Below are positions 745 through 61,592 of a stretch of 64,000 nt of DNA, in pieces. A program made the position numbers and the translations under genes. Source of the stretch: an uncultured Lentisphaerota bacterium (GTDB lineage: Bacteria; Verrucomicrobiota; Kiritimatiellia; CAIQIC01). The stretch lies in the NCBI GenBank assembly GCA_903912445.1, contig CAIWHP010000218.1, forward strand, positions 36,329 to 100,328. The letters are read 5' to 3'. Under the pieces are notes generated by a model. The model made no database searches. It was not told where the DNA came from and saw only the letters and a list, made by a program, of their open reading frames with translations. Each line of letters opens with the position of its first letter. Within the stretch, counting starts at the first letter, position 1.

Positions 745-3498
745 ATGAAGATTCCGGGCATCGCAGTGGGCTTGGTGGCGCTGGCGGCAGCGGCGGGCGC
801 GGCGGGCGCGGCGGAGGCGCCGCTGGTGTTGCGGTCGCAGGCCACGCACGGCGGCAGCGCGACGTGGCTCATGCAGCGCGCGGGTGACGCGCACGCCGAG
901 GGCGCGACGATCAGCACGCCGGGCTTCCAGACCGCGGGCTGGCAGAACGCGGTCGTGCCGGGCACGGTGCTCAACAGCCTCGTCAAGAACGGCGTCTACC
1001 CGGAGCCCTACTTCGGCCTCAACAACGCGCACGACTTCAAGAAGGTCCCCGACCTCAAGGACGTAGGCCTGGATTTCTACACCTACTGGTTCCGCACCGA
1101 GTTCGCACTGACGCCGGAGTTCGCCGGCCGGCGCGCCCTGCTGGAGCTCGGCGGCATCAACTACCGCGCCGAGATCTGGCTCAACGGCCAGAAGCTCGGC
1201 GACCTCGCGGGCATGTTTCAGCGTGGCTACTTCGACATCACCGCCCTCGCCAAGCCCAGCGGGCCGAACGCGCTCGCGGTGCGCGTGCGGCCGCCGGATA
1301 CGCCGGGCAACTTCCGTCCCAAGAAGGGTGGCGGCGGCGGCGCGGTCGGCGAGAACAGCAACGGCGGCGACCACACCTACGGCCAGAACGTGACGATGCT
1401 GATGAGCGTCGGCTGGGACTTCACCCTCCGCGACGGCGTGCGCGACCGCAACACCGGCGTCTGGAAAGATGTGAAGGTTTATCCCGTCGGCCCGGTGGCG
1501 CTGCGCGATCCGCAGGTGCGCTCCAAGCTGCCGCTGCCGCTGCTCGCGCCGGCGCGCGAGACCGTGGTGATCGAGGCGGTCAACCTGACCGGCGCGGAGC
1601 AAAAGGGCGTGCTGCGCGGAAAAATCCCCGGCGCGGGCGTGACGCTGGAGCAGCCCGTGACGCTCGCGGCCGGCGAGACGCGCACCCTCACCTTCACGCC
1701 GGAGCAGTTCCCGCAACTGGTCATCGCGCAGCCGCAGCTGTGGTGGCCGCTGAACAAGGGCGCGCAACACCTCTATAACCTCGAGTTGGAGTTCGTCGCT
1801 GCCGATGGCCGGGTGTCCGATCAATCCCGCTCGCGCTTCGGCATCCGCGAGATCACCAGCGACCAGCAGACGCCGGGCAGGGACCGCATCTTCTACGTCA
1901 ACGGCCAGCGCCTGTTCATCCGCGGCAGCAACTGGACCCCGGAGGCGATGTGCCGCGGCTCCGACGCGCGCACCTATGCCGAGCTGCGCTGGACCGCGCA
2001 GGCCGGCGTCAACCTGCTGCGCCAATGGGGCGGCGGCATCACCGAGTCGGACTACTTCTACGACCTGTGCGACGAGCTCGGCATCCTCGTCTGGACGGAA
2101 TTCTGGCTGACCGGCGACACCCTGCTGCCCGCCGAGCCGGAGCTCTATCGCGCGAACTTCGCCGACACGATCAAGCGCATCCGGCGCCATGCCTGCAATG
2201 CCTATTACGTCAGCGCCAACGAGCGCGACGCCAAGGGCGTCATCCCGGTCAAGGACCTGATCGACCAGCTCGACGGCACGACCGGCTGGCAGCCCGGCTC
2301 GGAGACCGACGGCATCCATGACGGCAGCCCCTACTGGACCTGCAACCCGATGTGGTACTACGAGGACAGCGCCTCGGAGCGCGGGAGCCGCATCTACGGT
2401 TTCAACCCGGAATACGGCTGCCCGTGCCTGCCGACGATCGACTGCCTGCGTGAGATGATGGACGAGAAGGACATCTGGCCGGTCAACAAAAACGTCTGGG
2501 ACTACCTCGACGGCGGCGGCTTCCACCGCATGTCCAGCGACTACCTGCGCGCGGTGGAGCAGTACGGCCCGATCCACAGCGCCGAGGAGCTCGCGCTACG
2601 CGCCCAGGCCTTCGGCGGCCTGGCCAACCGCGCGATCTGGGAATGCTGGAGCCGGAACAAGTTCGAGTTCGGCGACCGCTTCGGCACCGGCTTCCTCTTC
2701 TGGTATCACAACAGCCCCGAACCGCAGGTCTGCGGGCGCCTGTGGGATCACTCGCTCGAGCCGACCGCCGCACTCTACTTCACCCAGAAGGCCAACGAGC
2801 CGCGCCACGCGCAGTTCGACTTCCTCAAGAACGGCGTCAGCGTGGTCAACGAGCTGAAGCAGCCGTTCGCCGGCCGCGTCACGCTCCGCGTGCTCGATGG
2901 CGCGCTGAAGGAGATCATGCGGCAGGAGGCGGCCTGCTCCGTCGCCGCCGATGCCGTCACCAACGATGTCATCAAGGTAACGTGGCCCGCGCAGCTGCCG
3001 CCGGTCCAGTTTCTCAAGCTGGAATTGCGCGATGCCGGCGGCGCGCTCGTCAGCGATAATTTCTACTGGCGATCCGACAAGGCCTACCGCGCCGGGCCGC
3101 CCACCGCGACCGCGAAGCCGAAGGCGCCGCCGAAGCCCGGCGCGCCGCTGCGCTCATGGACCGGGCCGCAGTACGAGGGCTTCGAGTCGCTCGCCGCCCT
3201 GCCGCGCGTCGCGGTGGCGGCGCAGTTCGCGAAGAAGCAGGAGAACGGCTGGGCGCGCTACACCGGCACCGTGCGCAACCCCTCGCAGGGCCTGGCGTTC
3301 TTCGTCTGGCTGCGGCTGCAGGACGCCGCCACCGGCAAGCCCGTGCGGCCGGCCTACTTCAACGACAACTTCCTGATCCTGCTCCCCGGCGAGAGCAAGG
3401 CGATCACGATCGAGCACGACGAAGGCGTCACCGGCTCCCAGCCCACCCGGCTGGTCGTGGATGGCTGGAACATCGAGAAGCAGACGCTGAAGTTCTGA
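745..3498 (+). CDS. glycoside hydrolase family 2 protein (beta-mannosidase / exo-glucosaminidase-like), secreted
   Basis: ATG at 745 (aa 98 of track ORF 454..3498) gives signal peptide MKIPGIAVGLVALAAAAGAAGAAEA. GH2 sugar-binding-domain motif YRAEIWLNGQKLG and TIM-barrel motif NGQRLFIRGSNW; ~917 aa. Confidence 0.8.
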   Translation: MKIPGIAVGLVALAAAAGAAGAAEAPLVLRSQATHGGSATWLMQRAGDAHAEGATISTPGFQTAGWQNAVVPGTVLNSLVKNGVYPEPYFGLNNAHDFKKVPDLKDVGLDFYTYWFRTEFALTPEFAGRRALLELGGINYRAEIWLNGQKLGDLAGMFQRGYFDITALAKPSGPNALAVRVRPPDTPGNFRPKKGGGGGAVGENSNGGDHTYGQNVTMLMSVGWDFTLRDGVRDRNTGVWKDVKVYPVGPVALRDPQVRSKLPLPLLAPARETVVIEAVNLTGAEQKGVLRGKIPGAGVTLEQPVTLAAGETRTLTFTPEQFPQLVIAQPQLWWPLNKGAQHLYNLELEFVAADGRVSDQSRSRFGIREITSDQQTPGRDRIFYVNGQRLFIRGSNWTPEAMCRGSDARTYAELRWTAQAGVNLLRQWGGGITESDYFYDLCDELGILVWTEFWLTGDTLLPAEPELYRANFADTIKRIRRHACNAYYVSANERDAKGVIPVKDLIDQLDGTTGWQPGSETDGIHDGSPYWTCNPMWYYEDSASERGSRIYGFNPEYGCPCLPTIDCLREMMDEKDIWPVNKNVWDYLDGGGFHRMSSDYLRAVEQYGPIHSAEELALRAQAFGGLANRAIWECWSRNKFEFGDRFGTGFLFWYHNSPEPQVCGRLWDHSLEPTAALYFTQKANEPRHAQFDFLKNGVSVVNELKQPFAGRVTLRVLDGALKEIMRQEAACSVAADAVTNDVIKVTWPAQLPPVQFLKLELRDAGGALVSDNFYWRSDKAYRAGPPTATAKPKAPPKPGAPLRSWTGPQYEGFESLAALPRVAVAAQFAKKQENGWARYTGTVRNPSQGLAFFVWLRLQDAATGKPVRPAYFNDNFLILLPGESKAITIEHDEGVTGSQPTRLVVDGWNIEKQTLKF

Positions 3499-3509
3499 GC
3501 AGTAGAAAC

Positions 3510-4277
3510 ATGAAATACCTGCTCGCCCCCCTCCTCCTGCTGCTGCTCGCCGGTTGCGCCACCGCGCCCAAGCCGGCATTGCCGGACAATTCCGCCGTCA
3601 TGCCGGTTTCGAAACTGGAACAGGACCACTATGACTGGTTCGGACGGCACGAGGAAATTTTGCGCGTCAAGGACACGGTGCAGCCCGAGGTGGTGTTCAT
3701 CGGCGACTCCATCACGCACCAGTGGGGCGGCACGCCCGCAGCCAAGCCCCATCCGTCACCCGGCGAGAAGGTGCTGAAGACCACGCTGGGAGGTTATCGG
3801 ACGCTGAACCTCGGCTTCGGCTGGGACCGCACGCAGAACGTCCTCTGGCGCATCGAGCACGGCGAACTGGACGGCCTGCAGCCCAAGGCGGTGGTCATCC
3901 ACATCGGCACCAACAACACCAGCCCCGGCCATGCCCGGCCGAACACCGCCGCTGAAATCGCGGAAGGGATCAGCGCGATCTGCGACCGCGTCCACAGCAA
4001 GGTGCCGCACGCCAAGATCATCATCATGGCCATCTTCCCGCGCGAGGCCCAGCCCGAGCATCCGCGCCGGCAAATGATCAACGCCACCAACCGCCTGCTC
4101 CCCGCGGTGGCCCGGGCCCAGCAGGCCGCGTTCGTGGACCTCACGCCGCTGATGCTCGCGCCCGATGGCCAGCTGCCGCGCGAGGTGGCGCGCGACCTCT
4201 GCCATCTGACCGAAAAAGGCTACCAGATCTGGGCCGACGCCTTGCTCCCGATCCTGGCCGGGAGCAAGACCCGCTGA
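3510..4277 (+). CDS. SGNH/GDSL hydrolase family lipoprotein (PAF-acetylhydrolase-like)
   Basis: ATG at 3510 (aa 119 of ORF 3156..4277); lipoprotein signal MKYLLAPLLLLLLAGC; GDS motif FIGDSITHQWGG; C-terminal catalytic-His region ...ARDLCHLTEKGYQIWAD. Stop is 12 bp after the GH2 stop, so probably co-transcribed. Confidence 0.8.
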   Translation: MKYLLAPLLLLLLAGCATAPKPALPDNSAVMPVSKLEQDHYDWFGRHEEILRVKDTVQPEVVFIGDSITHQWGGTPAAKPHPSPGEKVLKTTLGGYRTLNLGFGWDRTQNVLWRIEHGELDGLQPKAVVIHIGTNNTSPGHARPNTAAEIAEGISAICDRVHSKVPHAKIIIMAIFPREAQPEHPRRQMINATNRLLPAVARAQQAAFVDLTPLMLAPDGQLPREVARDLCHLTEKGYQIWADALLPILAGSKTR

Positions 4278-6139: not shown

Positions 6140-8110
6140 ATGGTCAGCGCGTCACCATCTTATTCGGCGGACGCTGCGCCGTGTCCCCCCGGCCAAGCGC
6201 GCAGGCCCTCTTCACGCCCGACACAACCCTTGGCGCGAGGGCACGCCTGGCTGCTCTACGGCTTACTGCCGCTGCTCGCCTTCGCGGCGACAGGGTGGCT
6301 CTACCGCCATGTCTTCCACTGCGCGCCGATTACCACCGACGAGAACAGCTATATCTTTCAGGCTTACAACTTCCTCGCCGGCGTGATCGCCCGGCCCTGC
6401 CCGCCGTCGCCCGAAAGTTTCTTTCACGCCATGATCATTTGTGACGACCGTGTCGGCTGGCTTTCCCGCTATCCACCCGGCCACGCGCTTTGGTTGTTGC
6501 CCGGCTGCCTGCTGCATCAGCCGCACCTCATGGTGGCGCTGGCAGCCGCCCTGTCCGTGGGGCTCATGGCTCGCGTCGGCGCATTATTCGGGGGCCAGGT
6601 CGCTTGGCTCGCCGCACTTTTGCTGCTGCTCTCCCCTTTCTTTCTCTTCACGCATGGCACCTTGTTGGGCCACACCAGCGGACTGCTGGCCACGCTGCTC
6701 TTGCTGTATGGTTTCATGCGGTGGCAAGGGACGGGCACCGTTCTTTTCGCAGCGCTGGCCGGCCTGGGCTGGAGCTGGCTCTATCTGAATCGCACCTATA
6801 CGGCCGCACTGCTGGTCCCGCCGTTGGCCCTCTACAGCCTGATCACGCTCTTTCGCCAGCGGCACAACAAAACCGCATGGCTCGGCATGCTGCTGTTTGC
6901 CGGCACGGCCGCGACAGGTGTGGCGTTGGTTCTCTTCTACAACTATCTGGCCCTCGGTGATGCTTGGACCATGACCTATTCGTATTTCCGGCCTTCGGAG
7001 ACACTGGGGTTTGGCGTCAAACAAATTGATCATGCCCGTGTCGTGCATACGCTATCCACAGGCTTGCGCATGATGTGGGGCAACCTGCGCCTCTACGATC
7101 AGTGGCTGTTTGGCTTCACGGGCTCGCTCGTGGTGGCCGCGGCAGGGGCCCTTATCGGTTGGCGCAAGCAATGGAGTCCCTTGTTGTTGATGGCGCCGGT
7201 CATGGTCTGGGCCGGGTATGTCCTCTTTTGGTATCACGGCCCGCACGAAGTCGGCCCGGCCTATTATACGGAAACGTTGCCGTTCGTGGTTTTGGCGACC
7301 GCTTTGGGGTTGGCGCGCATACTCGACTTTTTGCGCGCAAGGCACTGGGCCTGGCAGTGCGGCTTGCTTGTGCTCTGCGGCGGATGGCTCACCAGTGATG
7401 CGCGTTTCCTCAGGCAGCAATCCGCCACGGTCAGCACCTTGTGCCAGCCGCTCGGGACCTTGCGCGAGTTTGTGCAGCAGGCGCCATCGAATTCCGTCAT
7501 TGTGACCACCGAGGCCACGCCCTTCACCAGCCGCCGCTATGGCCCTTTGGTCTTCAATCCACAGGGACTCGCGAGTCAGCCCCTGATCGTCCACGCCACA
7601 GGCGCTCAGGATGCCAGTGTGATCCCTAGGATGTTCCCCCACCACCAGGCCTTCACGCTGACCTCAACGGGCGGGCAACATCAACTGGTGCCGCTAATTC
7701 CGGCCGCTTTCAATCTTCCACTCTCCCTCGCAGCGCTGCGCCGCCATACCGGCCAGCGCCTCGGCGGGGACGGGCATCAGCCCGTGGTTCTCACGGCACA
7801 GCAAGCGCGAGACAAACCCGAGTTTCTCGCTTTTGGCCACACCGTGTTGCTGCCACCCGGACGCTTCGCTGCCGAGTTTGATTTTATCATCACCAATGCC
7901 AGCGCAAACGAGACGGTGCTGACCGTGGATATCGCCCGGACCGGCGGCCGTGAAAGCGTGGTGCGGCAAGCCTGCGCGGCCAACACCAGCGCCCCCCTTA
8001 TCGTGACGTTTGCGGTGACCCATTTCACCACGGTAGAACCGCGTGTGTTTTACCAAGGGAGAGGCGATGTCACCCTGCGCGGCATACGTCTGTATGAGCT
8101 TTCGCCGTAG
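6140..8110 (+). CDS. GT-C fold membrane glycosyltransferase (ArnT/PMT-like, GT39/GT83 type) with C-terminal soluble beta-sandwich-like domain
   Basis: ATG at 6140 three bp after upstream stop, preceded by gaggtg. ~11 predicted TM helices in the first 430 aa with loop motifs typical of polyprenyl-phosphate-sugar-dependent GT-C enzymes; ~230 aa C-terminal non-membrane domain. Confidence 0.7.
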   Translation: MVSASPSYSADAAPCPPGQARRPSSRPTQPLARGHAWLLYGLLPLLAFAATGWLYRHVFHCAPITTDENSYIFQAYNFLAGVIARPCPPSPESFFHAMIICDDRVGWLSRYPPGHALWLLPGCLLHQPHLMVALAAALSVGLMARVGALFGGQVAWLAALLLLLSPFFLFTHGTLLGHTSGLLATLLLLYGFMRWQGTGTVLFAALAGLGWSWLYLNRTYTAALLVPPLALYSLITLFRQRHNKTAWLGMLLFAGTAATGVALVLFYNYLALGDAWTMTYSYFRPSETLGFGVKQIDHARVVHTLSTGLRMMWGNLRLYDQWLFGFTGSLVVAAAGALIGWRKQWSPLLLMAPVMVWAGYVLFWYHGPHEVGPAYYTETLPFVVLATALGLARILDFLRARHWAWQCGLLVLCGGWLTSDARFLRQQSATVSTLCQPLGTLREFVQQAPSNSVIVTTEATPFTSRRYGPLVFNPQGLASQPLIVHATGAQDASVIPRMFPHHQAFTLTSTGGQHQLVPLIPAAFNLPLSLAALRRHTGQRLGGDGHQPVVLTAQQARDKPEFLAFGHTVLLPPGRFAAEFDFIITNASANETVLTVDIARTGGRESVVRQACAANTSAPLIVTFAVTHFTTVEPRVFYQGRGDVTLRGIRLYELSP

Positions 8111-28188: not shown

Positions 28189-28269
28189 CTTCCAAGGGTT
28201 GGAACTTTATTTCGCGTTTTTTCCAAGGCTTGGAAAAGCCCACAGAGCACCTTTCCAAGCCCTGGAAAG
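28189..28269. repeat. three phased copies of the palindromic motif TTTCCAAG-N-CTTGGAAA
   Basis: ttccaagggttggaac (28189-28204), ttttccaaggcttggaaaa (28218-28236), ctttccaagccctggaaag (28251-28269); ~31-33 bp phasing; fills the ridA-metY intergenic gap. Confidence 0.7.
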
Positions 28270-31720: not shown

Positions 31721-33241
31721 GTGTCGGCCATCGTTCTAGCAACTTTTTCGGCGCGCTACCAGCACGCGGCGTTCGGCCTGCGCTATTTGCAGGCGAACCT
31801 CGGCGAGCTGCAGGCGGATTCCGCCCTCCTGGAATTCGACCTGCAAACCGCACCCGCGCTGGCCGCCGCAAAAATCCTCGCGCCCGCCCCGCGCCTCGTC
31901 GGGCTCGGCGCCTATATCTGGAACATTCCCCAGACCGCCGCGTTGCTCGCGGCCCTGCGCCGCGCCGCGCCGCAGCTCACGCTCGTCCTCGGTGGCCCGG
32001 AAATCAGCTACGCAACCGAAACGCATCCGCTGACGCCGCTGGCCGACTACGTCATCTGCGGCGAGGCCGACCTCACGTTCGCCGCGCTCTGCCGCGCCGT
32101 GCTCGCCGGCGCGCCGCCGCGGGAGAAAATCGTCCACGCGCCGCCGCCCGCGCCCGCGCAGCTCGCCCTGCCCTACGCGCTCTATACCGATCACGACCTC
32201 GCGACGCGCTTCACCTACCTCGAGGCCTCGCGCGGCTGCCCGTTCGGCTGCGAGTACTGCGTCTCGGCCATCGAGCGCGGCGTGCGCCGCTTCGAGCTGG
32301 CAGCCCTTTTGCCGGAGTTCGAGCGTTTGCTCGCCCGCGGCATGCGGCGCATCAAGTTCGTGGACCGCACGTTCAACCTCGACGCCGACTTCGGCCGAGC
32401 CGTGCTGGAATTTTTCTATTCCTATGCTGCAGGTAGGGCGCCGCCTCCGGCGGAGCCGCTCGCCGTCAACGGCTCGGCGGGACGCCTCGCCCCACCGTCA
32501 GAGCTGCAGGTGCATCTGGAAATCACACCGTCGTGCCTGACGCCACCGTGGCGCGAGCTGCTGCGGCGCGCGCCGCCCGGCCTGCTGCGGCTGGAGGTCG
32601 GCGTGCAGACCTTTTCCGAGGAAATCAACGCGCGCATCGGCCGGCAACAAACCGCCGCCGCGGCCGAGGACGCGCTCCGCTTCCTGCGCCAGGAGACCCA
32701 CGCGCTGATCCACGCCGACCTGATCGCCGGGCTGCCGGGCCAGACGCTGGAAAGTTTCGCCGCCGACTTCGACCGCATGATCCATCTCCAACCCCACGAG
32801 CTGCAGGTCGGCATCCTCAAGCGCCTGCGCGGCACGGCCATTGCGCGGCACGACGCCGAGTGGGATGTCCGCTGGAATCCCGAGCCGCCGTACGAGCTCG
32901 TCGCCAACCAGTTGCTCGACGCCGCGACCGTGGAAAAGCTCAAGCGCTTCTCGCGCTTCTGGGAGCTGCTCGGCAACCGCGGCCGCTTCGAAAACACCTT
33001 GCCGCTGCTCTGGAGCGGGCCGGGCGACTCGCCGTTTTCCAGGGTTTGGAAGCTCTGCGACCACCTTTTTCCAAGGTTTGGAAAAACCCACAGCATCCCC
33101 CTGTTCGAGCTGGCCTACGCGCTCCTCGAACACCTGGTCGCCGGCTGCGGCCTCGAACGGGCGCGCGTCGCCGCCGCGCTGCGTACCGATTTGGCGCGCA
33201 GCGGCGCGCTGCATCTGCCAAACTGGCTCGACACACCATGA
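31721..33241 (+). CDS. B12-binding domain radical SAM protein (DUF4080 type)
   Basis: GTG at 31721 (aa 96 of ORF 31436); N-terminal B12-binding-like Rossmann, rSAM motif LEASRGCPFGCEYC, C-terminal DUF4080-like region; carries an in-frame copy pair of the TTTCCAAG palindrome at 33035-33086. Confidence 0.7.
   Translation: MSAIVLATFSARYQHAAFGLRYLQANLGELQADSALLEFDLQTAPALAAAKILAPAPRLVGLGAYIWNIPQTAALLAALRRAAPQLTLVLGGPEISYATETHPLTPLADYVICGEADLTFAALCRAVLAGAPPREKIVHAPPPAPAQLALPYALYTDHDLATRFTYLEASRGCPFGCEYCVSAIERGVRRFELAALLPEFERLLARGMRRIKFVDRTFNLDADFGRAVLEFFYSYAAGRAPPPAEPLAVNGSAGRLAPPSELQVHLEITPSCLTPPWRELLRRAPPGLLRLEVGVQTFSEEINARIGRQQTAAAAEDALRFLRQETHALIHADLIAGLPGQTLESFAADFDRMIHLQPHELQVGILKRLRGTAIARHDAEWDVRWNPEPPYELVANQLLDAATVEKLKRFSRFWELLGNRGRFENTLPLLWSGPGDSPFSRVWKLCDHLFPRFGKTHSIPLFELAYALLEHLVAGCGLERARVAAALRTDLARSGALHLPNWLDTP
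33035..33086. repeat. two phased copies of palindromic motif TTTCCAAG-N-CTTGGAAA located in-frame inside the B12-rSAM CDS
   Basis: ttttccagggtttggaag (33035-33052) and tttttccaaggtttggaaaaa (33066-33086); translates in-frame as ...SPFSRVWKLCDHLFPRFGKTH.... Confidence 0.65.
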
Positions 33242-36683: not shown

Positions 36684-37516
36684 GGTGACAACCTTTCGAT
36701 GGAAAGCCGCGCGGCATCGTACTCAAACACCTCGAGCGTGACCACGCCGGAAAAGCCGCGCACCGCCTCCAGGAAACTCTCCAGCCGGCCCGGCGCGAGG
36801 GCCGTCAGCGGCAGATGGTCGCGCCCGTCGCGCTCGCCGTGCAGGTGGATCACCCGCGCCCGCGGCAGCCAGGTGCGCAGGAACGCCGGCACGTCGCCGC
36901 CGCCCCGCCAGACATGCCCCACATCGGCACAAACGCTCAAGCCGAACCGGTCGAGCAGCGGCGCGCACCACTCGAAGGGATAGTTCAAGCTCTCGACACA
37001 GAACAGGCCGGGCGGCGGCCCGTCCGCGAGCAGGCGTGGCAGCTCGGCGGCCACGTCGCGCTGCCACGCCGCGACACGCGCGGCGGAGTCGCCCGGGCCG
37101 ATACCTTCGAGGTGCAGGATGTAGCCATGCACCGGCAAGGGCGCGAGGAGTGTGATGATGCGGCGCATCTGGTCCACGTGCGCCGCGCGTTCGGCGGCGT
37201 CCGCACTGCCGAGTTTGCGGTCGGTCGGAAAATGCACGGTGTAGGTCAGGCGGTGCTGATGGCCCAGCTCGGCCAAGCGCGCGACGACTTCCGCCGAAGG
37301 CAGGTTCGCCGTCTGCTCCGACTCGAAGAGCACCAGTTCGATATCGTCCACGCGCCCGGCGAGGCGCTCGACGTTCGGCAGGATATCGGCCGGATAGACA
37401 TAGGAGGTGACGCCGACGCGAAACGGCCGCGGAAAGGGCAGCCGGGGTAAGGGTGGATGGTGGATGCCAGGAGACGGAAGCGCTGCAATATATTCTGGAT
37501 CAGGCCTTGTCGTCAT
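36656..37516 (-). CDS. xylose-isomerase-like TIM-barrel protein (sugar phosphate isomerase/epimerase family); CbiR-like candidate
   Basis: TIM-barrel sugar-phosphate isomerase/epimerase-like pattern (…VHGYILHLEG…, …VIHLHGE…); overlaps cobU start by 28 nt; the Akkermansia cobamide-remodelling enzyme CbiR belongs to this fold and sits in cobamide loci. Confidence 0.45.
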   Translation of the reverse strand: MTTRPDPEYIAALPSPGIHHPPLPRLPFPRPFRVGVTSYVYPADILPNVERLAGRVDDIELVLFESEQTANLPSAEVVARLAELGHQHRLTYTVHFPTDRKLGSADAAERAAHVDQMRRIITLLAPLPVHGYILHLEGIGPGDSAARVAAWQRDVAAELPRLLADGPPPGLFCVESLNYPFEWCAPLLDRFGLSVCADVGHVWRGGGDVPAFLRTWLPRARVIHLHGERDGRDHLPLTALAPGRLESFLEAVRGFSGVVTLEVFEYDAARLSIERLSPCLTQTKAG

Positions 37517-37549
37517 ATGCGTTTCTCATCCACCATTCACCATCCGCCA

Positions 37550-39484
37550 TCAACCATTCTCCATGGTTTCCGCCACCCATGCTTGCAGCGCCGGGAAAAG
37601 CGGCTGGTGACCGAGCGCGCGGTGGAGCTGGCGCAGCGCGGCGGGGATGTGGGCGGCAAATGCGGCCGACTCCGGCCGCGCCGAAAGCTTGGCAAAGGCG
37701 CCGAGCGCCTGGACCAGCCGCTGGATCGCGGCCAGCCAGAACAGGTCCACCGGCACCGCGCCACCACCCTCGCGCTGGTAGGCGCTCAGCAGGTGCAGCT
37801 GCACCTCTTCCGTGAGATCGGCGTAGGGATCGCAGAGCAGCGACGCGAGATCGTAGGCCGCCGGGCCCAGGCGCATCCCCTGGAAATCGATCAGGTGCGG
37901 GTGGTTCTCGCGCCAGATGATGTTGCTCGATTGCAGATCGCGATGCACCAGCACCTGCGGCTCGCGCTCCAGTTGCGCGGTGATACCGGCCAACTCCTGC
38001 AGGATGCTCGCGATGGTTTCCACCGGCACGCCGCAGCGGCGCGCCAGCATATGCTCGGCAAAATAGTCGTGCTCCCAACGGTAGAGCTCGGGCCCGAAGT
38101 CCGGCATCCGCGCCAGCCCGACGCGCCGGACCGCCTGCGCGCCCTGCGTGTGCAACAGCACGACCGGACGCAGCGCCAGTTCATACAGCGCCAGCAGGTC
38201 GGCGCGCGCGAGGCCTTTCGCGAGGTTCAGCAGGTCGCGCTCGCCCACGTCCTCGACGATGGTGAGCTGGTGCTCCGGGTCGTCGTGCAGCACCGCCGGC
38301 ACCGGCAAGCCCAGGTCCTTGAGGAAGCGCGCGTGCAGGGCGAAGAGCTTGTTCTCCGCGCGCGCCGGATCGTAGCGCATCAGGATCGCCGTCCTTGCGC
38401 CGCTCATCAGCCACACGAACGTCCGCTGCGAGCCGCGCATGCCATCGGTGGCGACGGTCGTCTGCGTCACATCAAAACCCACCGCGCGCACCGCCGCCTG
38501 CTCCGCGGCATCGAGCCAGCGCTCGGCGCGTCCGACGAGGCCGGTCACATTGTGTTCCACCAGGGTATCCGGCCCGACGACGGCGCCGAACACTTCCACC
38601 TGCGGCGCGATCCGCGCACCGGGCAACAGCACGCTCAGCTCCACGCGCGCTTCCGGCGCCACCGTCACGTTCTCCGCCATCGCGACGAAGCCCGCGCCCC
38701 GCCGCGGCAACTGGCCGGCGCGCTGCGCCAGCGCAGGATCAAAGAGCGCGCCGCCGCACCGCTGCTGCTGATGCAGTTCCATGACCGTGGCATGCGCCGC
38801 CACATAATCCATGGGGCGGCCGGCATCCGCCCAGAAGGCGCCGGGCACCACCACGCCGCGCACGACCTCGCCGCGCGCCAGCGCCGCCGTATAGGTGGGC
38901 GTCATGCTCGCGAACACCTCCTGCTGCGGCAGGAAATCCAGGATGCGCTTCGTGAGCAGGTGCAGGCCGGTGAACGTGAACAGGTCCGGCGCGCCGGCCC
39001 GCGGGCTGGTCAGGTTCAGGATGCGCCCCGCCTGCAGGTCCACGGTGCGCGGGCCGAGGTGCGGCATCAGCCAGAGCGCCGCGAGCGGCTGATGCTGCGC
39101 AAAATCCGCGAGCAGCGGCAGCGGATCGAGCGCGGCGGCGACATCGGCATTGAACAGCCAGAAGGGTCCGGCATCGGGCAGGAACGGCTTCGCGCGCACC
39201 AGCGCGCCGCCCGTGCCGAGGATTTCCGTTTCGACGGAAAACTGCACCTGCACATCGGTGCGGGGCTGCTTGGCGAGGTGCGCGCGGATGGCGTCGGCGC
39301 CGTGGTGCAGGTTGATGAGCACCTCGCGCACGCCGAAGCCGGCGAGCAGGTCGAGCGCGCGGTCGAGCAGCGTCCGGCCCCACAGCGGCAGCAGCGGCTT
39401 GGGCACCTCGCGGGTCAGCGGCAACAGCCGCGTGCCGAAGCCGGCGGCGAGCAGCACGGCCTTGGTTGGACGGGAAATTATCAC
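37550..39484 (-). CDS. bifunctional sugar-1-phosphate nucleotidyltransferase (N-term) / aminoglycoside-phosphotransferase-like kinase (C-term); MurU-AmgK-like fusion
   Basis: GTG start; N-terminus MIISRPTKAVLLAAGFGTRLLPLTREVPKPLLPL is an NTP-transferase signature; C-terminal HRDLQSSNIIWRE...LIDFQGMRLGPAAYDLASLL is an APH/choline-kinase-like catalytic loop plus DFG-like motif. Confidence 0.65.
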   Translation of the reverse strand: MIISRPTKAVLLAAGFGTRLLPLTREVPKPLLPLWGRTLLDRALDLLAGFGVREVLINLHHGADAIRAHLAKQPRTDVQVQFSVETEILGTGGALVRAKPFLPDAGPFWLFNADVAAALDPLPLLADFAQHQPLAALWLMPHLGPRTVDLQAGRILNLTSPRAGAPDLFTFTGLHLLTKRILDFLPQQEVFASMTPTYTAALARGEVVRGVVVPGAFWADAGRPMDYVAAHATVMELHQQQRCGGALFDPALAQRAGQLPRRGAGFVAMAENVTVAPEARVELSVLLPGARIAPQVEVFGAVVGPDTLVEHNVTGLVGRAERWLDAAEQAAVRAVGFDVTQTTVATDGMRGSQRTFVWLMSGARTAILMRYDPARAENKLFALHARFLKDLGLPVPAVLHDDPEHQLTIVEDVGERDLLNLAKGLARADLLALYELALRPVVLLHTQGAQAVRRVGLARMPDFGPELYRWEHDYFAEHMLARRCGVPVETIASILQELAGITAQLEREPQVLVHRDLQSSNIIWRENHPHLIDFQGMRLGPAAYDLASLLCDPYADLTEEVQLHLLSAYQREGGGAVPVDLFWLAAIQRLVQALGAFAKLSARPESAAFAAHIPAALRQLHRALGHQPLFPALQAWVAETMENG

Positions 39485-43727: not shown

Positions 43728-43781
43728 CTTTTCCAGACCTTGGAAACCGGAACCCGCGGCTTTTCCAAGGCTGGGAAAACC
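43728..43781. repeat. two phased copies of palindromic motif TTTCCAAG-N-CTTGGAAA upstream of the rpsP operon
   Basis: cttttccagaccttggaaacc (43728-43748) and cttttccaaggctgggaaaacc (43760-43781); ~32 bp phasing. Confidence 0.65.
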
Positions 43782-55047: not shown

Positions 55048-55126
55048 TTTTCCAAGCCTTGGAAACCGGGCAGCCGGTTTTTCCAAGGCTTGGAAAAAAA
55101 CCGTGTGGAATTTCCAAGGCTTGGAA
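55048..55126. repeat. three phased copies of palindromic motif TTTCCAAG-N-CTTGGAAA
   Basis: ttttccaagccttggaaa (55048-55065), tttttccaaggcttggaaaaa (55078-55098), tttccaaggcttggaa (55111-55126); 30-32 bp phasing; fills the floA-downstream intergenic gap. Confidence 0.75.
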
Positions 55127-55806: not shown

Positions 55807-55905
55807 GCCTGGCCGGCGGCGGCAAGTCCACTACGTGAAACTATTTTTGAACATTTGACCCTAGAGCCACGTCAAACTGCATACGACTCGCGGAAAGGAA
55901 GCAAC

Positions 55906-56895
55906 ATGAGCAACGGAATCGGGATCATCAACGAGCAGGTGAAGGCGGAGAGCGCGTGGGTGGCGGCGCTGCGCGCGGAGATCGGCAAGGTCATCGTCGG
56001 GCAGAAATACCTGGTGGACCGCTTGCTGGTGGGCCTGCTGTCCAACGGCCACGTGCTGCTGGAGGGCGTGCCGGGCCTGGCCAAGACGCTGTCGGTCAAG
56101 ACGCTCGCCGCGGCCATCCACACCGGCTTCCAGCGCATCCAATTCACGCCCGACCTGCTGCCCGCCGACCTGCTCGGCACGCAGATCTACAGCCCCAAGG
56201 ACGGCACGTTCTCGACCAAGCGCGGGCCGATCTTCACCAACCTGCTGCTAGCCGACGAAATCAACCGCGCGCCGGCCAAGGTCCAGAGCGCGCTGCTGGA
56301 GGCGATGCAGGAGCGCCAGGTGACGCTCGGCGGCGAGACGCACAAGCTGCCCAGCCCGTTCCTCGTGCTCGCCACGGAGAACCCGATCGAGCAGGAAGGC
56401 ACCTACCCGCTGCCGGAGGCGCAGGTCGACCGCTTCATGCTCAAGCTGCGCATCACCTACCCGACGATCGAGGAAGAAAAACAGATCCTCGAGACGATGG
56501 CCGTCACCGAGCGGCAGTTCGCCGTGGCCCCCGTGGTCGAGCCGGACACGATCGCCCGCGCGCAGAAGGTCGTCAACGAGATCTACATGGACGACAAGAT
56601 CAAGGACTACATCCTGAGCATCGTCTTCGCCACGCGCGAGCCGGAGAAGTACAAGCTGGCGCTCAAGGACTACCTGCGCTACGGCGCCTCGCCGCGCGCG
56701 ACGATCTACCTCGCCGTGGCCGCGCGCGCCCAGGCGTTCCTGCAGGGGCGCGGCTACGTGACCCCGCAGGACGTCAAGACCATCGCGCCCGACGTGCTGC
56801 GCCACCGCATCATCGCCTCCTACGAGGCCGAGGCCGAGGAGCTGACCACCGACGACCTGATCGCGCGGATCCTAAGCGAATTACCCGTGCCGTGA
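55906..56895 (+). CDS. MoxR-family AAA+ ATPase
   Basis: ATG at 55906 (aa 18 of ORF 55855); Walker A LLEGVPGLAKT, Walker B FTNLLLADEINRAP; ~330 aa; first gene of Bat-type operon. Confidence 0.9.
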   Translation: MSNGIGIINEQVKAESAWVAALRAEIGKVIVGQKYLVDRLLVGLLSNGHVLLEGVPGLAKTLSVKTLAAAIHTGFQRIQFTPDLLPADLLGTQIYSPKDGTFSTKRGPIFTNLLLADEINRAPAKVQSALLEAMQERQVTLGGETHKLPSPFLVLATENPIEQEGTYPLPEAQVDRFMLKLRITYPTIEEEKQILETMAVTERQFAVAPVVEPDTIARAQKVVNEIYMDDKIKDYILSIVFATREPEKYKLALKDYLRYGASPRATIYLAVAARAQAFLQGRGYVTPQDVKTIAPDVLRHRIIASYEAEAEELTTDDLIARILSELPVP

Positions 56896-56920
56896 AAAGC
56901 TGACAAGGGCTGGAGCATTT

Positions 56921-57425
56921 CCGATTGAAGATTGCCGATTGCCGATTGCCGATTTGCGGTAGTGGAACTTAACGGAAGAAAAGCTGAAGCGTGCCGGGCG
57001 AGGTAGTGGATCATGACACCGGAAGAATTGAAAAAGCGCACGAAACAGTTCGCGCTGCGGGTGATCAAGCTGGTTACCGCGCTGCCCGACACGCCGTGGG
57101 GCCGGGTGGCGGGCCACCAGCTCCTGCGCGCGGGCACGGCGGTGGGAGCCAACTATCGAGCGGCCTGCCGCGCCCGGTCGCGCGCCGAGTTCGTCGCCAA
57201 GGTCGGCACCGTCATCGAGGAGTCTGACGAAAGCGCGTATTGGCTCGAACTCATTGTCGATAGCAAGCTGATGGATGCGAAACTGGTCACCGATCTCCAC
57301 CAAGAGGCGGAGGAACTCACGGCCATCATGACCTCCTCGCGTAAATCCGCGCAGAAAAATGCGCCCCCTTATGAATGAAAGGTTCCCTACCGCAAATCGG
57401 CAATCTTCAATCGGAAATCGAAAAT
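56921..57425. mobile_element. inverted-repeat-flanked cassette carrying a four-helix-bundle protein gene, inserted between moxR and the DUF58 gene
   Basis: Left repeat ccgattgaagattgccgattgccgattgccgatttgcgg (56921-56958); right repeat ccgcaaatcggcaatcttcaatcggaaatcgaaaa (57390-57425) is its imperfect reverse complement; cargo is the 4HB gene 57013..57378. Confidence 0.55.
57013..57378 (+). CDS. four-helix-bundle protein (23S rRNA intervening-sequence protein family, TIGR02436-like)
   Basis: 121 aa; MTPEELKKRTKQFALRVIKL...GHQLLRAGTAVGANYRAACRARSRAEFVAKVGTVIEESDESAYWLELI.... Confidence 0.85.
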   Translation: MTPEELKKRTKQFALRVIKLVTALPDTPWGRVAGHQLLRAGTAVGANYRAACRARSRAEFVAKVGTVIEESDESAYWLELIVDSKLMDAKLVTDLHQEAEELTAIMTSSRKSAQKNAPPYE

Positions 57426-57437
57426 AGCGTTTTTCCC

Positions 57438-58322
57438 ATGCTCGCCAAAGAGATCATCAAAAAAGTTCGCCAGATCGAGATCCGTACGCGGCATCTCGTG
57501 AACGACGTCTTTGCGGGCGAGTACCACAGCGTCTTCAAGGGCCGCGGCATGGAGTTCCAGGAGGTGCGCGAGTACGAGCCGGGCGACGACATCCGCGCGA
57601 TCGACTGGAACGTCACGGCGCGCATGGGCCACCCCTTCATCAAGAAGTTCAGCGAGGAGCGCGAGCTGACCGTGATGCTGCTGGTGGACATCAGCGGCTC
57701 GAACCAGTTCGGCTCCGGCACGCAGCTCAAGCAGGACCTCGCCGCCGAGCTCGCCGCCGTGCTCGCCTTCGCCGCCATCCGCAACAACGACCGCGTCGGC
57801 CTGATCCTCTTCAGCGACGAGGTGGAGCATTATCTCCCGCCCAAGAAGGGCAGCAGCCACGTCCTGCGCGTCGTGCGCGACGTGCTCGGCTTCCGCGCCA
57901 AGCGCCGCGGCACCGCCCTGGCGCCGGCGCTGGATTTCCTCAACCACACCACCGCGCGCAAGACGGTGACGTTCCTCATCAGCGATTTCATCACGCGGGA
58001 GGACCTGAAGGCCGCGCTGCGCGTCAGCGCCACGCGCCACGACCTCGTCGCCGTCGTCACGGCCGACCCGCGCGAGCGCGTCTGGCCAGCCGCCGGCCTG
58101 GTGGAATGGCGCGACCCGGAAACCGGCGCCGTCCAGGTGTGCGACACCTCGAGCCCGCGCGTGCGCCAGGCCCTGACGCGGCAGTTCGACCAGCAGCGCA
58201 CCGACCTCAAGCAGCGGCTGGCGCGCACCGGGCTGGACGTGGTCGAGGTCTGGGCCGGCGAGGCCTATGACCGCGAGCTGGTGCGCTTCTTCAAGGCGCG
58301 CGAACGGCGGCTGCGGACATGA
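57438..58322 (+). CDS. DUF58 domain protein (Bat-operon vWA-like)
   Basis: ATG at 57438 (aa 22 of ORF 57375); GEYHSVFKGRGMEFQEVREYEPGDDIRAIDWNVTAR is the DUF58 core; MLLVDISGSN vWA-like MIDAS region. Confidence 0.85.
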   Translation: MLAKEIIKKVRQIEIRTRHLVNDVFAGEYHSVFKGRGMEFQEVREYEPGDDIRAIDWNVTARMGHPFIKKFSEERELTVMLLVDISGSNQFGSGTQLKQDLAAELAAVLAFAAIRNNDRVGLILFSDEVEHYLPPKKGSSHVLRVVRDVLGFRAKRRGTALAPALDFLNHTTARKTVTFLISDFITREDLKAALRVSATRHDLVAVVTADPRERVWPAAGLVEWRDPETGAVQVCDTSSPRVRQALTRQFDQQRTDLKQRLARTGLDVVEVWAGEAYDRELVRFFKARERRLRT

Positions 58323-59392: not shown

Positions 59393-60346
59393 ATGACTTT
59401 CTGTTATCCATGGCTGTTGCTGGCGGCGCTGCTGATCCCGGCGGTGCTTTGGCTGCGGTTTGCGCACCGCCGGCCGACGCTGAACTTCAGCGACGGCGGG
59501 CGGCTCGCGCACCTGCCGCGGACTTGGGCCGTCCGGCTCCAGCCCGCCCTGCCGGTCCTGTACGCGCTCGGCCTGCTGTGCCTAGTCATCGCCCTCGCCC
59601 GCCCGCAAAAAGGCCTCGAAGAAAGCCGCGTCCGCACCGAGGCCGTGGACATCGTGCTGCTGGTGGACGTCTCGCCCTCGATGAACATCCCCGATTTCTC
59701 CACGCCCATGCGCACGATGAACCGGCTCGACGCCGCCAAGACGGTGCTCGACAAGTTCATCGCCAGCCGCACACACGACCGGCTCGGAATGATCGGCTTC
59801 TCCGCCTTCCCCTACACGCTCTGCCCGCTGACGCTCGACCACGGCTGGCTGCTGGAGCGCATGCGCAACCTGCGCCCCGGCATGCTGGGCGACGCCACCG
59901 GCATCGGCGACGCGATGGCTTCCGCCGTCAACCGCCTGCGCGACAGCAAGGCCAAGAGCAAGGTCGTCGTCCTGCTGACTGACGGTCAGAATAACTGCGG
60001 CCTGATGCAGCCCGACATCGCGGCGCAGGCGGCGAAGGCGCTCGGCATCAAGATCTACACCGTCGGCGCCAGCAGCCGCACCACCCGCGGCGCCGGCGAT
60101 GACGGCGTGGACGAGGCCGCGCTCAAGCGCATCGCCGAAACCACCGGCGCCGCCTACTTCCGCGCCGCCAACCTCGACCGGATGCAGCACGTCTACGAGC
60201 AGATCGACAAGATGGAAAAGACGGAGATCCAGGTGGACCACTTTACGCGCTTCCACGAACTGGCCACCCCGTGGCTGCTGGCCGCGCTGCTGCTGCTGGG
60301 CCTGGAACAAGCGCTCGCGCTGACGCGGCTGGGGAGGCTCCCATGA
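59393..60346 (+). CDS. batA: vWA domain-containing protein BatA
   Basis: Two N-terminal TM helices, vWA MIDAS motif VDIVLLVDVSPSM...TDGQNN, C-terminal TM. Confidence 0.8.
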   Translation: MTFCYPWLLLAALLIPAVLWLRFAHRRPTLNFSDGGRLAHLPRTWAVRLQPALPVLYALGLLCLVIALARPQKGLEESRVRTEAVDIVLLVDVSPSMNIPDFSTPMRTMNRLDAAKTVLDKFIASRTHDRLGMIGFSAFPYTLCPLTLDHGWLLERMRNLRPGMLGDATGIGDAMASAVNRLRDSKAKSKVVVLLTDGQNNCGLMQPDIAAQAAKALGIKIYTVGASSRTTRGAGDDGVDEAALKRIAETTGAAYFRAANLDRMQHVYEQIDKMEKTEIQVDHFTRFHELATPWLLAALLLLGLEQALALTRLGRLP

Positions 60347-60354
60347 GGAAATTG

Positions 60355-60576
60355 ACGATTGCAGATTGCCGATTGAAGATTTGTGGAAGGGCACACTTCC
60401 TTAGAATCAGAAAGGCAAGCTGCGCCCTTTCCCAGGCCTTGGGAAAAACAGCACTTTCGTTTGATAAGCTTTGGAACGAAGTGTGTGTGGACCTTTTTGA
60501 CACCGCCCATGGGTCATTCTTAGTCCGGTTCGCTACCGCCAATCGGCAATCGGCAATCTTCAATCGGAAATTCCGC
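60355..60576. mobile_element. second inverted-repeat-flanked insertion (same CCGATTG-rich terminal repeats) with ~150 bp non-coding cargo, between batA and batB
   Basis: Left gacgattgcagattgccgattgaagatttgtgg (60355-60387); right ccgccaatcggcaatcggcaatcttcaatcggaaattccgc (60536-60576), reverse-complement related; cargo contains one tttcccaggccttgggaaaaa palindrome (60428-60448) and no ORF. Confidence 0.5.
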
Positions 60577-60578
60577 TG

Positions 60579-61592
60579 ATGCAATTCGGTCATCCAGAGT
60601 GGTTGTACGCGCTGTGGGGCTTGCTCCCGCTGGCATGGCTCGGCTTCGCGCTGCTCGCGTGGCGCGAGCGGCGGCTGGGGCAGCTCGCCGCGCTGAAGCT
60701 GTGGGCCGTCCTCGCGCCGGAGCGCAGCCTGGCGCGCCGCCGCCTGCGCCTCGCCCTCTGGTTCGCCGCCGCCGCGCTGCTCATCGCCGCCCTGGCGCGC
60801 CCGCAGTGGGGCTTCCGCTGGGAGGACGTCAAGCGGCGCGGACTCGACATCCTCGTCGTGCTGGACACCTCGCGCAGCATGGCGTCGCAGGACATCAAGC
60901 CCAACCGCCTGCAGCGCGCAAAGTGGGGCGTGCGCGACCTCCTTGGCAAGCTGCAGGGCGACCGCGTCGGCCTGATCGCCTTCGCGGGCACGAGCTATGC
61001 GGCCTGCCCGCTGACGATCGACTATGCCGCCTTCGCGGCGATGCTCGACGATGTCTACGTGGGTTTCGTGCCGCGCGGCGGCACGGCCATCGCGCAGTCG
61101 CTGGACACCGCGATCCGCAGCTTCGAAAGCGGCGGCGAGGCCGACCGCGCCATCGTCCTGATCACCGACGGGGAAGACCACGAGGGCGATCCCCTCGCGC
61201 GCATCGCCGGGCTGAAGGCGAAGAACATCCGCGTCTACGCAGTCGGCGTCGGCACCCCGGATGGCGAACTGATCCCCGAAGAGGCCGGCGGCCACGCCGG
61301 CTTCCTCAAGGACCGCGCCGGCAACGTGGTCAAGTCCGCCTTGCGCGAGGACGTGTTGCGCCGGCTCGCGGTGGAGACCGGCGGCGCCTACGTCCGCGCG
61401 ACGCCCGGCGACTTCGGGCTGGAACGGATCTATGACCAGGGCATCGCCCAGCTCAAGCGCGACGAGCAGTCGGGGCGGCTCTCGCAGATCGCCGAGGAGC
61501 GCTATCCATGGTTCATCGGGGCGGCGCTCGTGCTGCTGCTCGCCGAGGCGCTCATCGGCCTGCGCCGGCGTAATCCGGAGGCAGCGCGATGA
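60579..61592 (+). CDS. batB: vWA domain-containing protein BatB
   Basis: N-terminal TMs, vWA MIDAS LDILVVLDTSRSM...ITDGEDHEGD, C-terminal TM; stop overlaps batC start. Confidence 0.8.
   Translation: MQFGHPEWLYALWGLLPLAWLGFALLAWRERRLGQLAALKLWAVLAPERSLARRRLRLALWFAAAALLIAALARPQWGFRWEDVKRRGLDILVVLDTSRSMASQDIKPNRLQRAKWGVRDLLGKLQGDRVGLIAFAGTSYAACPLTIDYAAFAAMLDDVYVGFVPRGGTAIAQSLDTAIRSFESGGEADRAIVLITDGEDHEGDPLARIAGLKAKNIRVYAVGVGTPDGELIPEEAGGHAGFLKDRAGNVVKSALREDVLRRLAVETGGAYVRATPGDFGLERIYDQGIAQLKRDEQSGRLSQIAEERYPWFIGAALVLLLAEALIGLRRRNPEAAR

Follow-up and report, generated by a model that had tools for sequence, protein, structure and literature searches.

The window, as we call the whole 64-kb stretch of DNA analysed here, contains a moxR-bat operon with the order moxR, E1, a DUF58 gene, a hypothetical gene, batA, E2, and batB. 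E2 is a gene-less inverted-repeat element with heptamer arms, and it makes up the entire batA-batB intercistronic spacer (60347..60578, plus strand, 232 bp). The upstream host gene, batA (59393..60346, plus strand), codes for a VWA/BatA protein, and its TGA stop codon directly abuts the left arm of E2. The downstream host gene, batB (60579..61592, plus strand; VWA/BatB), has an ATG that overlaps the TGA of the right edge of E2 (TGATG). The left arm (60350..60394, plus strand) is formed by the heptamers GATTGAC, GATTGCA, GATTGCC, GATTGAA, and GATTTGT, followed by an inner non-repetitive extension (GTGGAAGGGCAC). The right arm (60528..60572, plus strand) starts with its own inner extension (GTTCGCTACCGC) and continues with two to three copies of CAATCGG, then CAATCTT and CAATCGG. 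In general terms, tandem (GATTGNN)n units at the left end face inverted (NNCAATC)n units at the right end. The initial annotation had reported the right repeat (60536-60576) and a palindrome inside the spacer (60428-60448) exactly, and it had started the left repeat at 60355 instead of 60354. It had also described the interior as free of ORFs, which held except for a 46-aa GTG frame, the only ORF of at least 40 aa lying wholly within the spacer; alignment showed that the sequence of this frame is unconserved in orthologous copies.

The periodicity and the inverted arrangement of the arms were verified. Tandem Repeats Finder detected period-7 arrays at 60357-60381 and 60540-60571 (3.6 and 4.6 copies), and the arms were found to be complementary over 25 nt at 92% or over 45 nt at 78%, with an inverted-repeat alignment score of 40 (mean 13 and maximum 24 in shuffled sequences). 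The E2 spacer is visibly richer in A+T than the window, whose average G+C content is about 65%. Searches of the 64-kb window with the exact double-heptamer GATTGNNGATTG gave nine matches (0.09 expected), all of them confined to the four arms of E1 and E2, and the looser pattern CGATTGNNGATTG gave 13 (1.29 expected). E1 and E2 are the only two GATTG-type elements in the window, and both belong to one operon. A third heptamer inverted-repeat pair, built from another unit, was observed at 37451-37557, just 5' of an ATG at 37564: two copies of GGTGGAT are separated by a gap of about 60 nt from a second array (CATCCAC, CATTCAC, CATCCGC, CATCAAC, CATTCTC), and no four-helix-bundle gene is present inside this pair.

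E1, the full-length sister of E2, is located 3.4 kb upstream (56896..57437, plus strand), between moxR (55855-56895) and the DUF58 gene. It consists of a left heptamer arm (about 56917-56968), a gene for a four-helix-bundle (4HB) protein of 121 aa (57013-57378), and a right arm (about 57381-57419), all on the plus strand. The 121-aa product matched PF05635 (E = 3.5e-14) and TIGR02436, "four helix bundle protein" (E = 5e-22), and has a structurally solved relative (PDB 2RLD); it is the only cargo of E1, which encodes no transposase. The mechanically called ORF of the DUF58 gene begins at 57375 and takes in the right arm as well as the end of the 4HB gene; DUF58 orthologs (294 aa, ATGctcgccaaa) indicate that the true start is at 57438.

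The resemblance of the terminal repeats of E2 to those around the 4HB gene had been noticed in the initial annotation, which had set an alignment of the two repeat pairs beforehand as the test that could refute it. When the left arm of E1 was compared with the E2 right arm in reverse complement, 34 of 35 positions were identical. In addition, GGTTCNCTACCGC, located inward of the heptamers, is common to the right arms of both elements, and GATTTG(C/T)GG(T/A)AG to their left arms. The match reaches into the non-repetitive inner part (GATTTGYGGWAG / CTACCGCNAATCGG), and the inner GCGGTAG / CTACCGC is present in E1, in E2, and across species. Since the arm identity includes this non-repetitive sequence, the likeness exceeds what low-complexity heptamer runs would give, and the resemblance withstood the test. 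Outside the arms, no sequence shared by E1 and E2 was detected by alignment or blastn. Judged by their arms, E1 and the element inserted as E2 are members of the same subfamily.

In order to reconstruct the history of the spacer, bat operons of relatives were gathered through their BatA homologs, with L001, L002, L004, and L206-L209 as the ingroup and L217 and L218 as outgroups. In both outgroups (62-63% BatA identity) batA and batB overlap, so the E2 spacer corresponds to an insertion, as had been proposed. The batA-batB junction measures 232 bp in the window, 370 bp in L001, 193 bp in L002, 211 bp in L206, 161 bp in L207, 397 bp in L209, 58 bp in L208, and 2 bp in L004. Six ingroup relatives thus have a filled junction at exactly the E2 site, with edges in common (TGA followed by agagattgatgattg on the left, ccgcTGATG on the right). 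The closest BatA proteins to that of the window come from verrucomicrobial MAGs. These comparisons indicate that E2 is old and has been inherited vertically since its insertion into the originally overlapping batA/batB junction of an ancestor of this verrucomicrobial clade; it is not a recent or active MITE.

In trees of BatA and of BatB, L208 is basal and L004 is the sister of L207, within the filled group. L004 was considered as a possible ancestral empty site and was ruled out, as it is nested among filled lineages in both trees; its 2-bp junction accordingly represents a clean secondary loss of E2. L004 also lacks E1. The junctions at which E1 and E2 are gone are of 7 bp and 2 bp (4154-4160 and 6961-6962 of L004, the same in L005), and their cleanness suggests that these hairpin elements are deleted efficiently and almost precisely.

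The interior of the spacer contains palindromes of a family that is widespread in the window. The canonical palindrome TTCCARGNCYTGGAA occurs 12 times (0.01 expected), in five intergenic clusters of two to three copies each (648-693, 28190-28267, 33037-33083, 43731-43777, and 55050-55126), with a spacing of about 31-32 bp and usually just 5' of a start codon. The clusters look like a REP/BIME-like repeat or an array of regulator sites. The palindrome of E2 (60428..60448) is a diverged copy of TTCCAAGNCTTGGAA: it was correctly reported as the single copy inside, but it carries an additional C:G pair and fails to match TTCCARGNCYTGGAA with one mismatch or fewer. Most filled orthologs contain several TTCCAAGNCTTGGAA palindromes (three in L001, L002, and L206; six in L209), so that the number of copies differs among orthologous spacers. 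Alignment with L001 and L002 showed that the window has kept only the middle one of three, with traces of the other two flanking it: a decayed first palindrome (cttccttagaatcagaaag, 60396..60414), aligned with ttttccaagcattggaaac in L001, and a decayed third one (tttgataagctttggaacg, 60460..60478), aligned with tttccaatgcttggaaaac in L001 and tttccaagccttggaaaac in L002. The physical link of E2 to the TTTCCAAG palindromes, already pointed out from the window, is thus real and even stronger in the orthologs with three to six copies inside.

These copy numbers raise the question of whether the palindrome array, as a REP/BIME-like or regulator-binding module 5' of batB, could be the primary element and the heptamer arms incidental to it. 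The 12 canonical copies elsewhere in the window, in clusters that all lack heptamers, and the three to six copies in orthologous spacers would speak for such an origin. We nevertheless consider it very improbable, because only one diverged palindrome survives in the window E2, because the E2 site of L207 and that of the basal relict L208 have heptamers and no palindromes, and because the arms of E2 are homologous to those of E1, which contains no palindrome.

The arms themselves have diverged considerably at the orthologous site. Complementarity between them is kept only in the window and in L001, its closest relative, is weak in L209, and has been lost in L002, L206, L207, and L208. This distribution indicates that E2 is decaying and that hairpin formation is not conserved at the E2 site. 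The type of heptamer also varies among orthologous copies (GATTGCC, GATTTAT, GATTTTC, TCAGGTN). In L002, the right arm (7095-7147) consists of TCAGGTN heptamers, which lack complementarity to the GATTGCN units on the left; judging from this copy, arms are evidently replaceable by unrelated heptamer arrays.

E2 was also searched for traces of the gene that its sister element carries. No 4HB remnant was detected in E2 or in its six orthologs, either by blastn and blastx or by a six-frame profile search (hmmsearch, E of at least 0.3), and the weak blastx matches of E2 were traced to heptamer-encoded tails of over-extended gene calls. A deletion of the ORF would thus have to be deduced for E2, whose descent from a gene-bearing copy is suggested by the homology of the arms. 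A comparable deletion can be seen directly at the other spacer of the operon. The moxR/DUF58 spacer of L207 (2011-2110, 100 bp) keeps both E1 arms together with the last codons and the 3' tail of the 4HB gene (aatgaaaac..ccctaccgc), and the 4HB ORF is deleted. Arms without the ORF offer a direct view of the route from a gene-bearing element to a gene-less heptamer hairpin, and from its sequence we interpret this spacer as a natural intermediate between the two. The initial proposal of a decayed or cargo-less version of the same element fits with the E1 of L207, while for E2 itself, which has no 4HB remnant, the deletion is a deduction.

The moxR/DUF58 junction also records how the element was acquired. 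In the basal L208 this spacer has only 24 bp and no heptamers, and later branches have arms plus gene; this difference indicates that the arms and the cargo of E1 arrived as one unit. The outgroup L218 (62% BatA identity) has a 4HB cassette with other arms (GATTTTC / GAAAATC-GCAGATC) at the same moxR/DUF58 junction (940-1440), and a separate inverted repeat of 8-nt units (GAGAATGG ... CTCCCACT) upstream of batA (3362-3500). The spacers of the bat operon appear to have been colonised repeatedly.

In order to find out if heptamer arms are a general property of 4HB genes, 31 relatives of the 4HB protein were aligned, and with this alignment 80 metagenome loci, whose 4HB proteins are 53-69% identical to the query, were obtained with flanks of 1.5 kb. 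With a strict detector applied within 260 nt of the gene to 75 of these loci, period-7 arrays were detected upstream in 58, downstream in 60, and on both sides in 49. Their density was 3.75 per kb near the 4HB gene vs. 0.48 per kb farther away, and the period was specific: 149 arrays had period 7, and between 1 and 20 had each of the periods 5, 6, 8, and 9. When the upstream flank was aligned with the reverse complement of the downstream flank, the best alignment was the heptamer run in nearly all testable loci, and the inverted-repeat scores were far above those of direct-repeat and shuffle controls, again in nearly all loci. The inverted orientation of the arms is the usual one in about 70 independent loci. 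On the sense strand, the upstream unit is G-A-T-T-(T/G)-N-N; its variable positions vary from element to element and correspond between the arms of any single element, so that left and right units covary (2.63 of four variable positions match vs. 1.89 in permutations, with none of 5000 permutations reaching the observed value). According to crude ORF calls, the two genes next to the 4HB gene both point in its direction in 38 loci and both point the opposite way in five. E1 and E2 have the same polarity within the moxR-bat operon; in both, the sense strand carries the GATT arm and the host genes are co-directional. A crude check for conserved motifs gave no 23S rRNA context in any of the 80 loci.

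The same design was recognised in hosts from many phyla. In Gloeocapsa PCC 7428 (L211), GATTTTA arms abut the start and stop codons of a 4HB gene located between a DUF1156 gene and a Swt1-HEPN gene; in Planktothrix agardhii (L212), a cassette with GATTTAC arms lies between the DISARM gene drmD and an MmeI-type gene; and Candidatus Chlorohelix (L213) has the same arm-4HB-arm arrangement. These three cassettes are on plasmids, inside defence-type operons. Other units were found in the arms of Nostoc punctiforme (GTCGGAG) and Treponema saccharophilum (GAAAGNN). Gene-less heptamer hairpins like E2 were present in metagenome loci (L151, L129, L170, L165, and L182) and among matches from a genome collection (L106, L024, L094, and L092). 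This collection had been scanned with CCGCNAATCGGCAATC across 596 Gb, a pattern so short that the matches were mostly chance hits to coding DNA, and among the matches listed about 11 loci contain genuine heptamer arrays. In a collection of viral contigs, only three relatives of the 4HB subfamily were found, which indicates that the cassettes are not mainly phage-borne there. 4HB proteins 64-71% identical to that of the window were observed in Thermodesulfobacteriota, Patescibacteria, Planctomycetota, and Chthoniobacterales, and host BatA proteins already fall to about 60% identity within Verrucomicrobiota and Kiritimatiellia. Comparison of both values suggests that the cassette gene has spread horizontally. 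If the association holds up, PF05635/TIGR02436 genes would usually reside inside a hairpin with GATT[G/T]NN-heptamer arms, inserted in sense between the genes of a host operon, and would degenerate into heptamer hairpins that no longer have the gene.

The family data also bear on whether any element was inserted at all. Heptamer runs could have grown in place by slippage or expansion, an origin already proposed for other heptamer repeats between genes, the likeness of E2 to E1 being then due to gene conversion between spacers 3.4 kb apart. The quick turnover of heptamers at the orthologous site is in line with such growth, the only two GATTG-type elements of the window do share one operon, and intergenic direct repeats of heptamers, of unknown origin, have been described in Beggiatoaceae and Geobacter (PMC4679880, PMC2700814). 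On the other hand, slippage leaves unexplained the non-repetitive GCGGTAG / CTACCGC that E1 and E2 share with other species, the E1 site evolved from a spacer without heptamers in L208 to arms and gene together in later branches, and arms are inverted as a rule in about 70 independent loci. Growth in place is thus unlikely in our opinion.

The predicted RNA structure of both elements was then considered. The structure prediction that had been recommended at the outset gave, for E2, a fold in which the arms pair, at -95.3 kcal/mol (z = -5.1); for E1, the predicted fold had -232 kcal/mol (z = -4.9), and the entire ORF is enclosed in it by a stem that the arms form over about 40 bp. Rfam gave no match for E2 at the gathering score, nor any beyond noise at E values up to 10 (the best one, 14.9 bits and E = 3.1, was to eukaryotic families), and an Rfam scan found no rRNA in the window. 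In the region 60100-60800, no promoter-like site was found and no terminator-like site lies within E2; the only terminator-like match (60239-60226, minus strand) is inside batA, and such matches were no more frequent than in shuffled sequences. Among E2 orthologs the interior and the arms are unconserved, and the final 16 nt or so before the batB ATG (GGAAATTCCGCTGATG) are fairly conserved.

A stable fold would be expected if E2 were a selected cis-acting RNA or a small RNA gene, for instance an intercistronic processing or stability hairpin or an attenuator tuning batB-batD expression relative to batA. Its z value, its sense polarity in a spacer without a terminator-like site, the conservation of GGAAATTCCGCTGATG, and the retention of the spacer in most of the clade are in line with this. 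We nonetheless find a selected RNA improbable: spacer length varies from 58 to 397 bp among orthologs, the arms have become non-complementary in four of them and only weakly complementary in L209, one lineage has lost the spacer and still keeps the operon, and neither an Rfam match nor a promoter-like site was found in the searches described above. Consequently, the small RNA considered in the initial annotation received no support. Arm mismatches were also counted across 61 elements: G:U pairs (60) were not in excess over A:C (53), so nothing shows that selection acts on pairing in RNA and not in DNA, and the pairing may be preserved in the DNA itself or by the process that produces the arms. 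The decay among orthologs, together with this lack of a G:U excess, speaks against a selected RNA role at the E2 locus, and its speed argues that E2 is essentially neutral selfish DNA at the bat locus, a near-neutral relic.

Several known systems resemble E1 and E2 in part. In the ORF-bearing intervening sequences of 23S rRNA (Coxiella burnetii, Leptospira; S23p / PF05635 gene), a 4HB ORF of about 120 aa is enclosed in a long stem, which is exactly the design of E1. The Coxiella report describes an ORF of the PF05635 family bounded by a 28-bp inverted-repeat stem, within which RNase III cuts, so that the element is excised from the host transcript, and regards it as selfish (PMC4990558). Complementary termini forming a stable stem are shared, in predicted folds, by E1 and E2, and the arms of E2 are those of E1. 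In contrast, the rRNA elements sit in helix 9, 25, or 45, whereas E1 and E2 occupy mRNA intercistronic spacers between protein-coding genes; the arms of E1 and E2 are tandem heptamers, a feature that the available part of PMC4990558 does not describe for 23S rRNA intervening sequences; and E2, unlike the ORF-bearing elements, has no ORF.

The arms of E2 resemble a second group of sequences, namely short tandemly repeated repetitive (STRR) type repeats, whose units are tandem, intergenic, and of 7 nt, as in E2 (period 7, 3.6 and 4.6 copies). STRRs are intergenic heptanucleotide repeats of cyanobacteria, whose RNase P RNA also contains STRR units in one of its helices. The E2 unit GATTGNN is presumably not one of the canonical STRR units, and its host is, by its closest proteins, verrucomicrobial and not cyanobacterial. 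The heptamer runs flanking the 4HB genes of Nostoc punctiforme and Planktothrix look like members of this STRR-like class. Outside cyanobacteria, TAACTGA repeats in Beggiatoaceae and heptanucleotide elements in Geobacter are intergenic, variable in copy number, and of unexplained origin, and the Beggiatoa survey counted 169 direct heptamer sets and one inverted set (PMC4679880, PMC2700814). Known heptamer repeats are thus mainly direct arrays, while those of the E1/E2 type are inverted pairs bracketing a cargo, with the unit GATT[G/T]NN and in a verrucomicrobial-type genome. No link of intergenic heptamer repeats to 4HB genes was mentioned in the papers searched.

E2 also shares features with mobile repeats. 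Like MITEs, it is small and non-coding and has terminal inverted repeats, with the complementarity given above; like MITE, REP/BIME, ERIC, and Correia elements, it is intergenic, is predicted to fold back on itself in read-through RNA, and is present in some relatives and absent from others. It differs from them in its internally periodic arms. No target-site duplication could be defined for the elements: TGA stands at both edges of E2 (ccaTGA followed by gga, and ccgcTGA followed by TG), where it is also the batA stop codon and part of the stop/start overlap, and no consistent duplication was seen at E1. Moreover, the autonomous partner of a MITE encodes a transposase, whereas E1, the full-length partner of E2, encodes only the 121-aa 4HB protein. 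The Avd protein of diversity-generating retroelements has a four-helix-bundle fold too. In a review, Avd is assigned to PF05635, the Pfam family of the E1 cargo (PMC10053308). Neither a reverse transcriptase gene nor a template/variable repeat pair was found among the bat-operon genes examined, and E2, in contrast to Avd, encodes no protein. Finally, 23S_rRNA_IVP genes have been reported in cas operons, where cmr3 and cmr2 can flank such a gene, and discussed as possible CRISPR-associated functions (PMC3936711); the links of 4HB genes to defence and cas operons may simply reflect the insertion of cassettes into operons.

Taking these data together, we think it likely that E2 is a gene-less, degenerating relic of a family of inverted repeats with a (GATT[G/T]NN)n 5' arm and its reverse complement as the 3' arm. 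In full-length members, the arms would enclose one small promoterless 4HB gene (PF05635/TIGR02436). E1 has both the heptamer arms and the enclosed ORF, and E2 has the arms and no such ORF; without any 4HB similarity, E2 can belong to the family only as a gene-less derivative. A member of the E1 subfamily entered the overlapping batA/batB junction in the verrucomicrobial-clade ancestor and has been inherited vertically since then. Its 4HB ORF may have been lost by internal deletion, as in the E1 of L207, or the element may have been gene-less on arrival. The loop holds an array of the TTCCAAGNCTTGGAA palindromes of the genome, of which two out of three, together with part of the arm complementarity, have decayed in the window. 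Given its sense polarity inside an operon and its lack of a terminator, E2 would most likely be co-transcribed with the moxR-bat genes, and its transcript is predicted to fold into a stem of 25-45 bp closing a structured loop of about 135 nt. By analogy, such a stem would be the kind of substrate that RNase III cuts in the ORF-bearing rRNA intervening sequences, and E1 and E2 might act like intervening sequences in mRNA. If functional at all, the E2 stem could be cut by RNase III or could block decay, and in this way set the batA and batB parts of the mRNA apart or give them different stabilities.

A broader hypothesis, which we put forward as possible rather than probable, is that heptamer inverted repeats are the ends of an unrecognised class of selfish cassettes that lack a transposase, have an Avd-like 4HB protein as their sole product, and insert in sense into operons across phyla; gene-less hairpins such as E2, and perhaps much STRR-like array DNA, would then be their footprints. 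The cassettes encode no transposase, and if this hypothesis is true one would expect the 4HB protein to bind the GATT-periodic arms in their DNA or RNA form and so promote spread or maintenance.

ORF-bearing intervening sequences, intergenic heptanucleotide repeats, and 23S_rRNA_IVP genes in cas operons are all already known, and the interest of the present findings lies in the family-level association of 4HB genes with heptamers. In the literature searched, in which subscription journals were mostly outside coverage, we found no described link of 4HB/IVS-protein genes to heptamer inverted repeats and no statement that gene-less heptamer hairpins derive from 4HB genes. E2 itself is a decaying relic, and its value is that it exposed a general arm rule for the abundant and functionally obscure PF05635/TIGR02436 genes. 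If this rule holds up, it would link two old puzzles, the ORF-bearing rRNA intervening sequences and the intergenic heptanucleotide repeats, and would explain the presence of 4HB genes in operons as unrelated as bat, the DISARM operon of Planktothrix, DUF1156-HEPN, and cas. It would also call for caution in annotating 4HB genes by guilt by association, and its signature would let annotators read such spacers as selfish insertions and not as regulatory regions.
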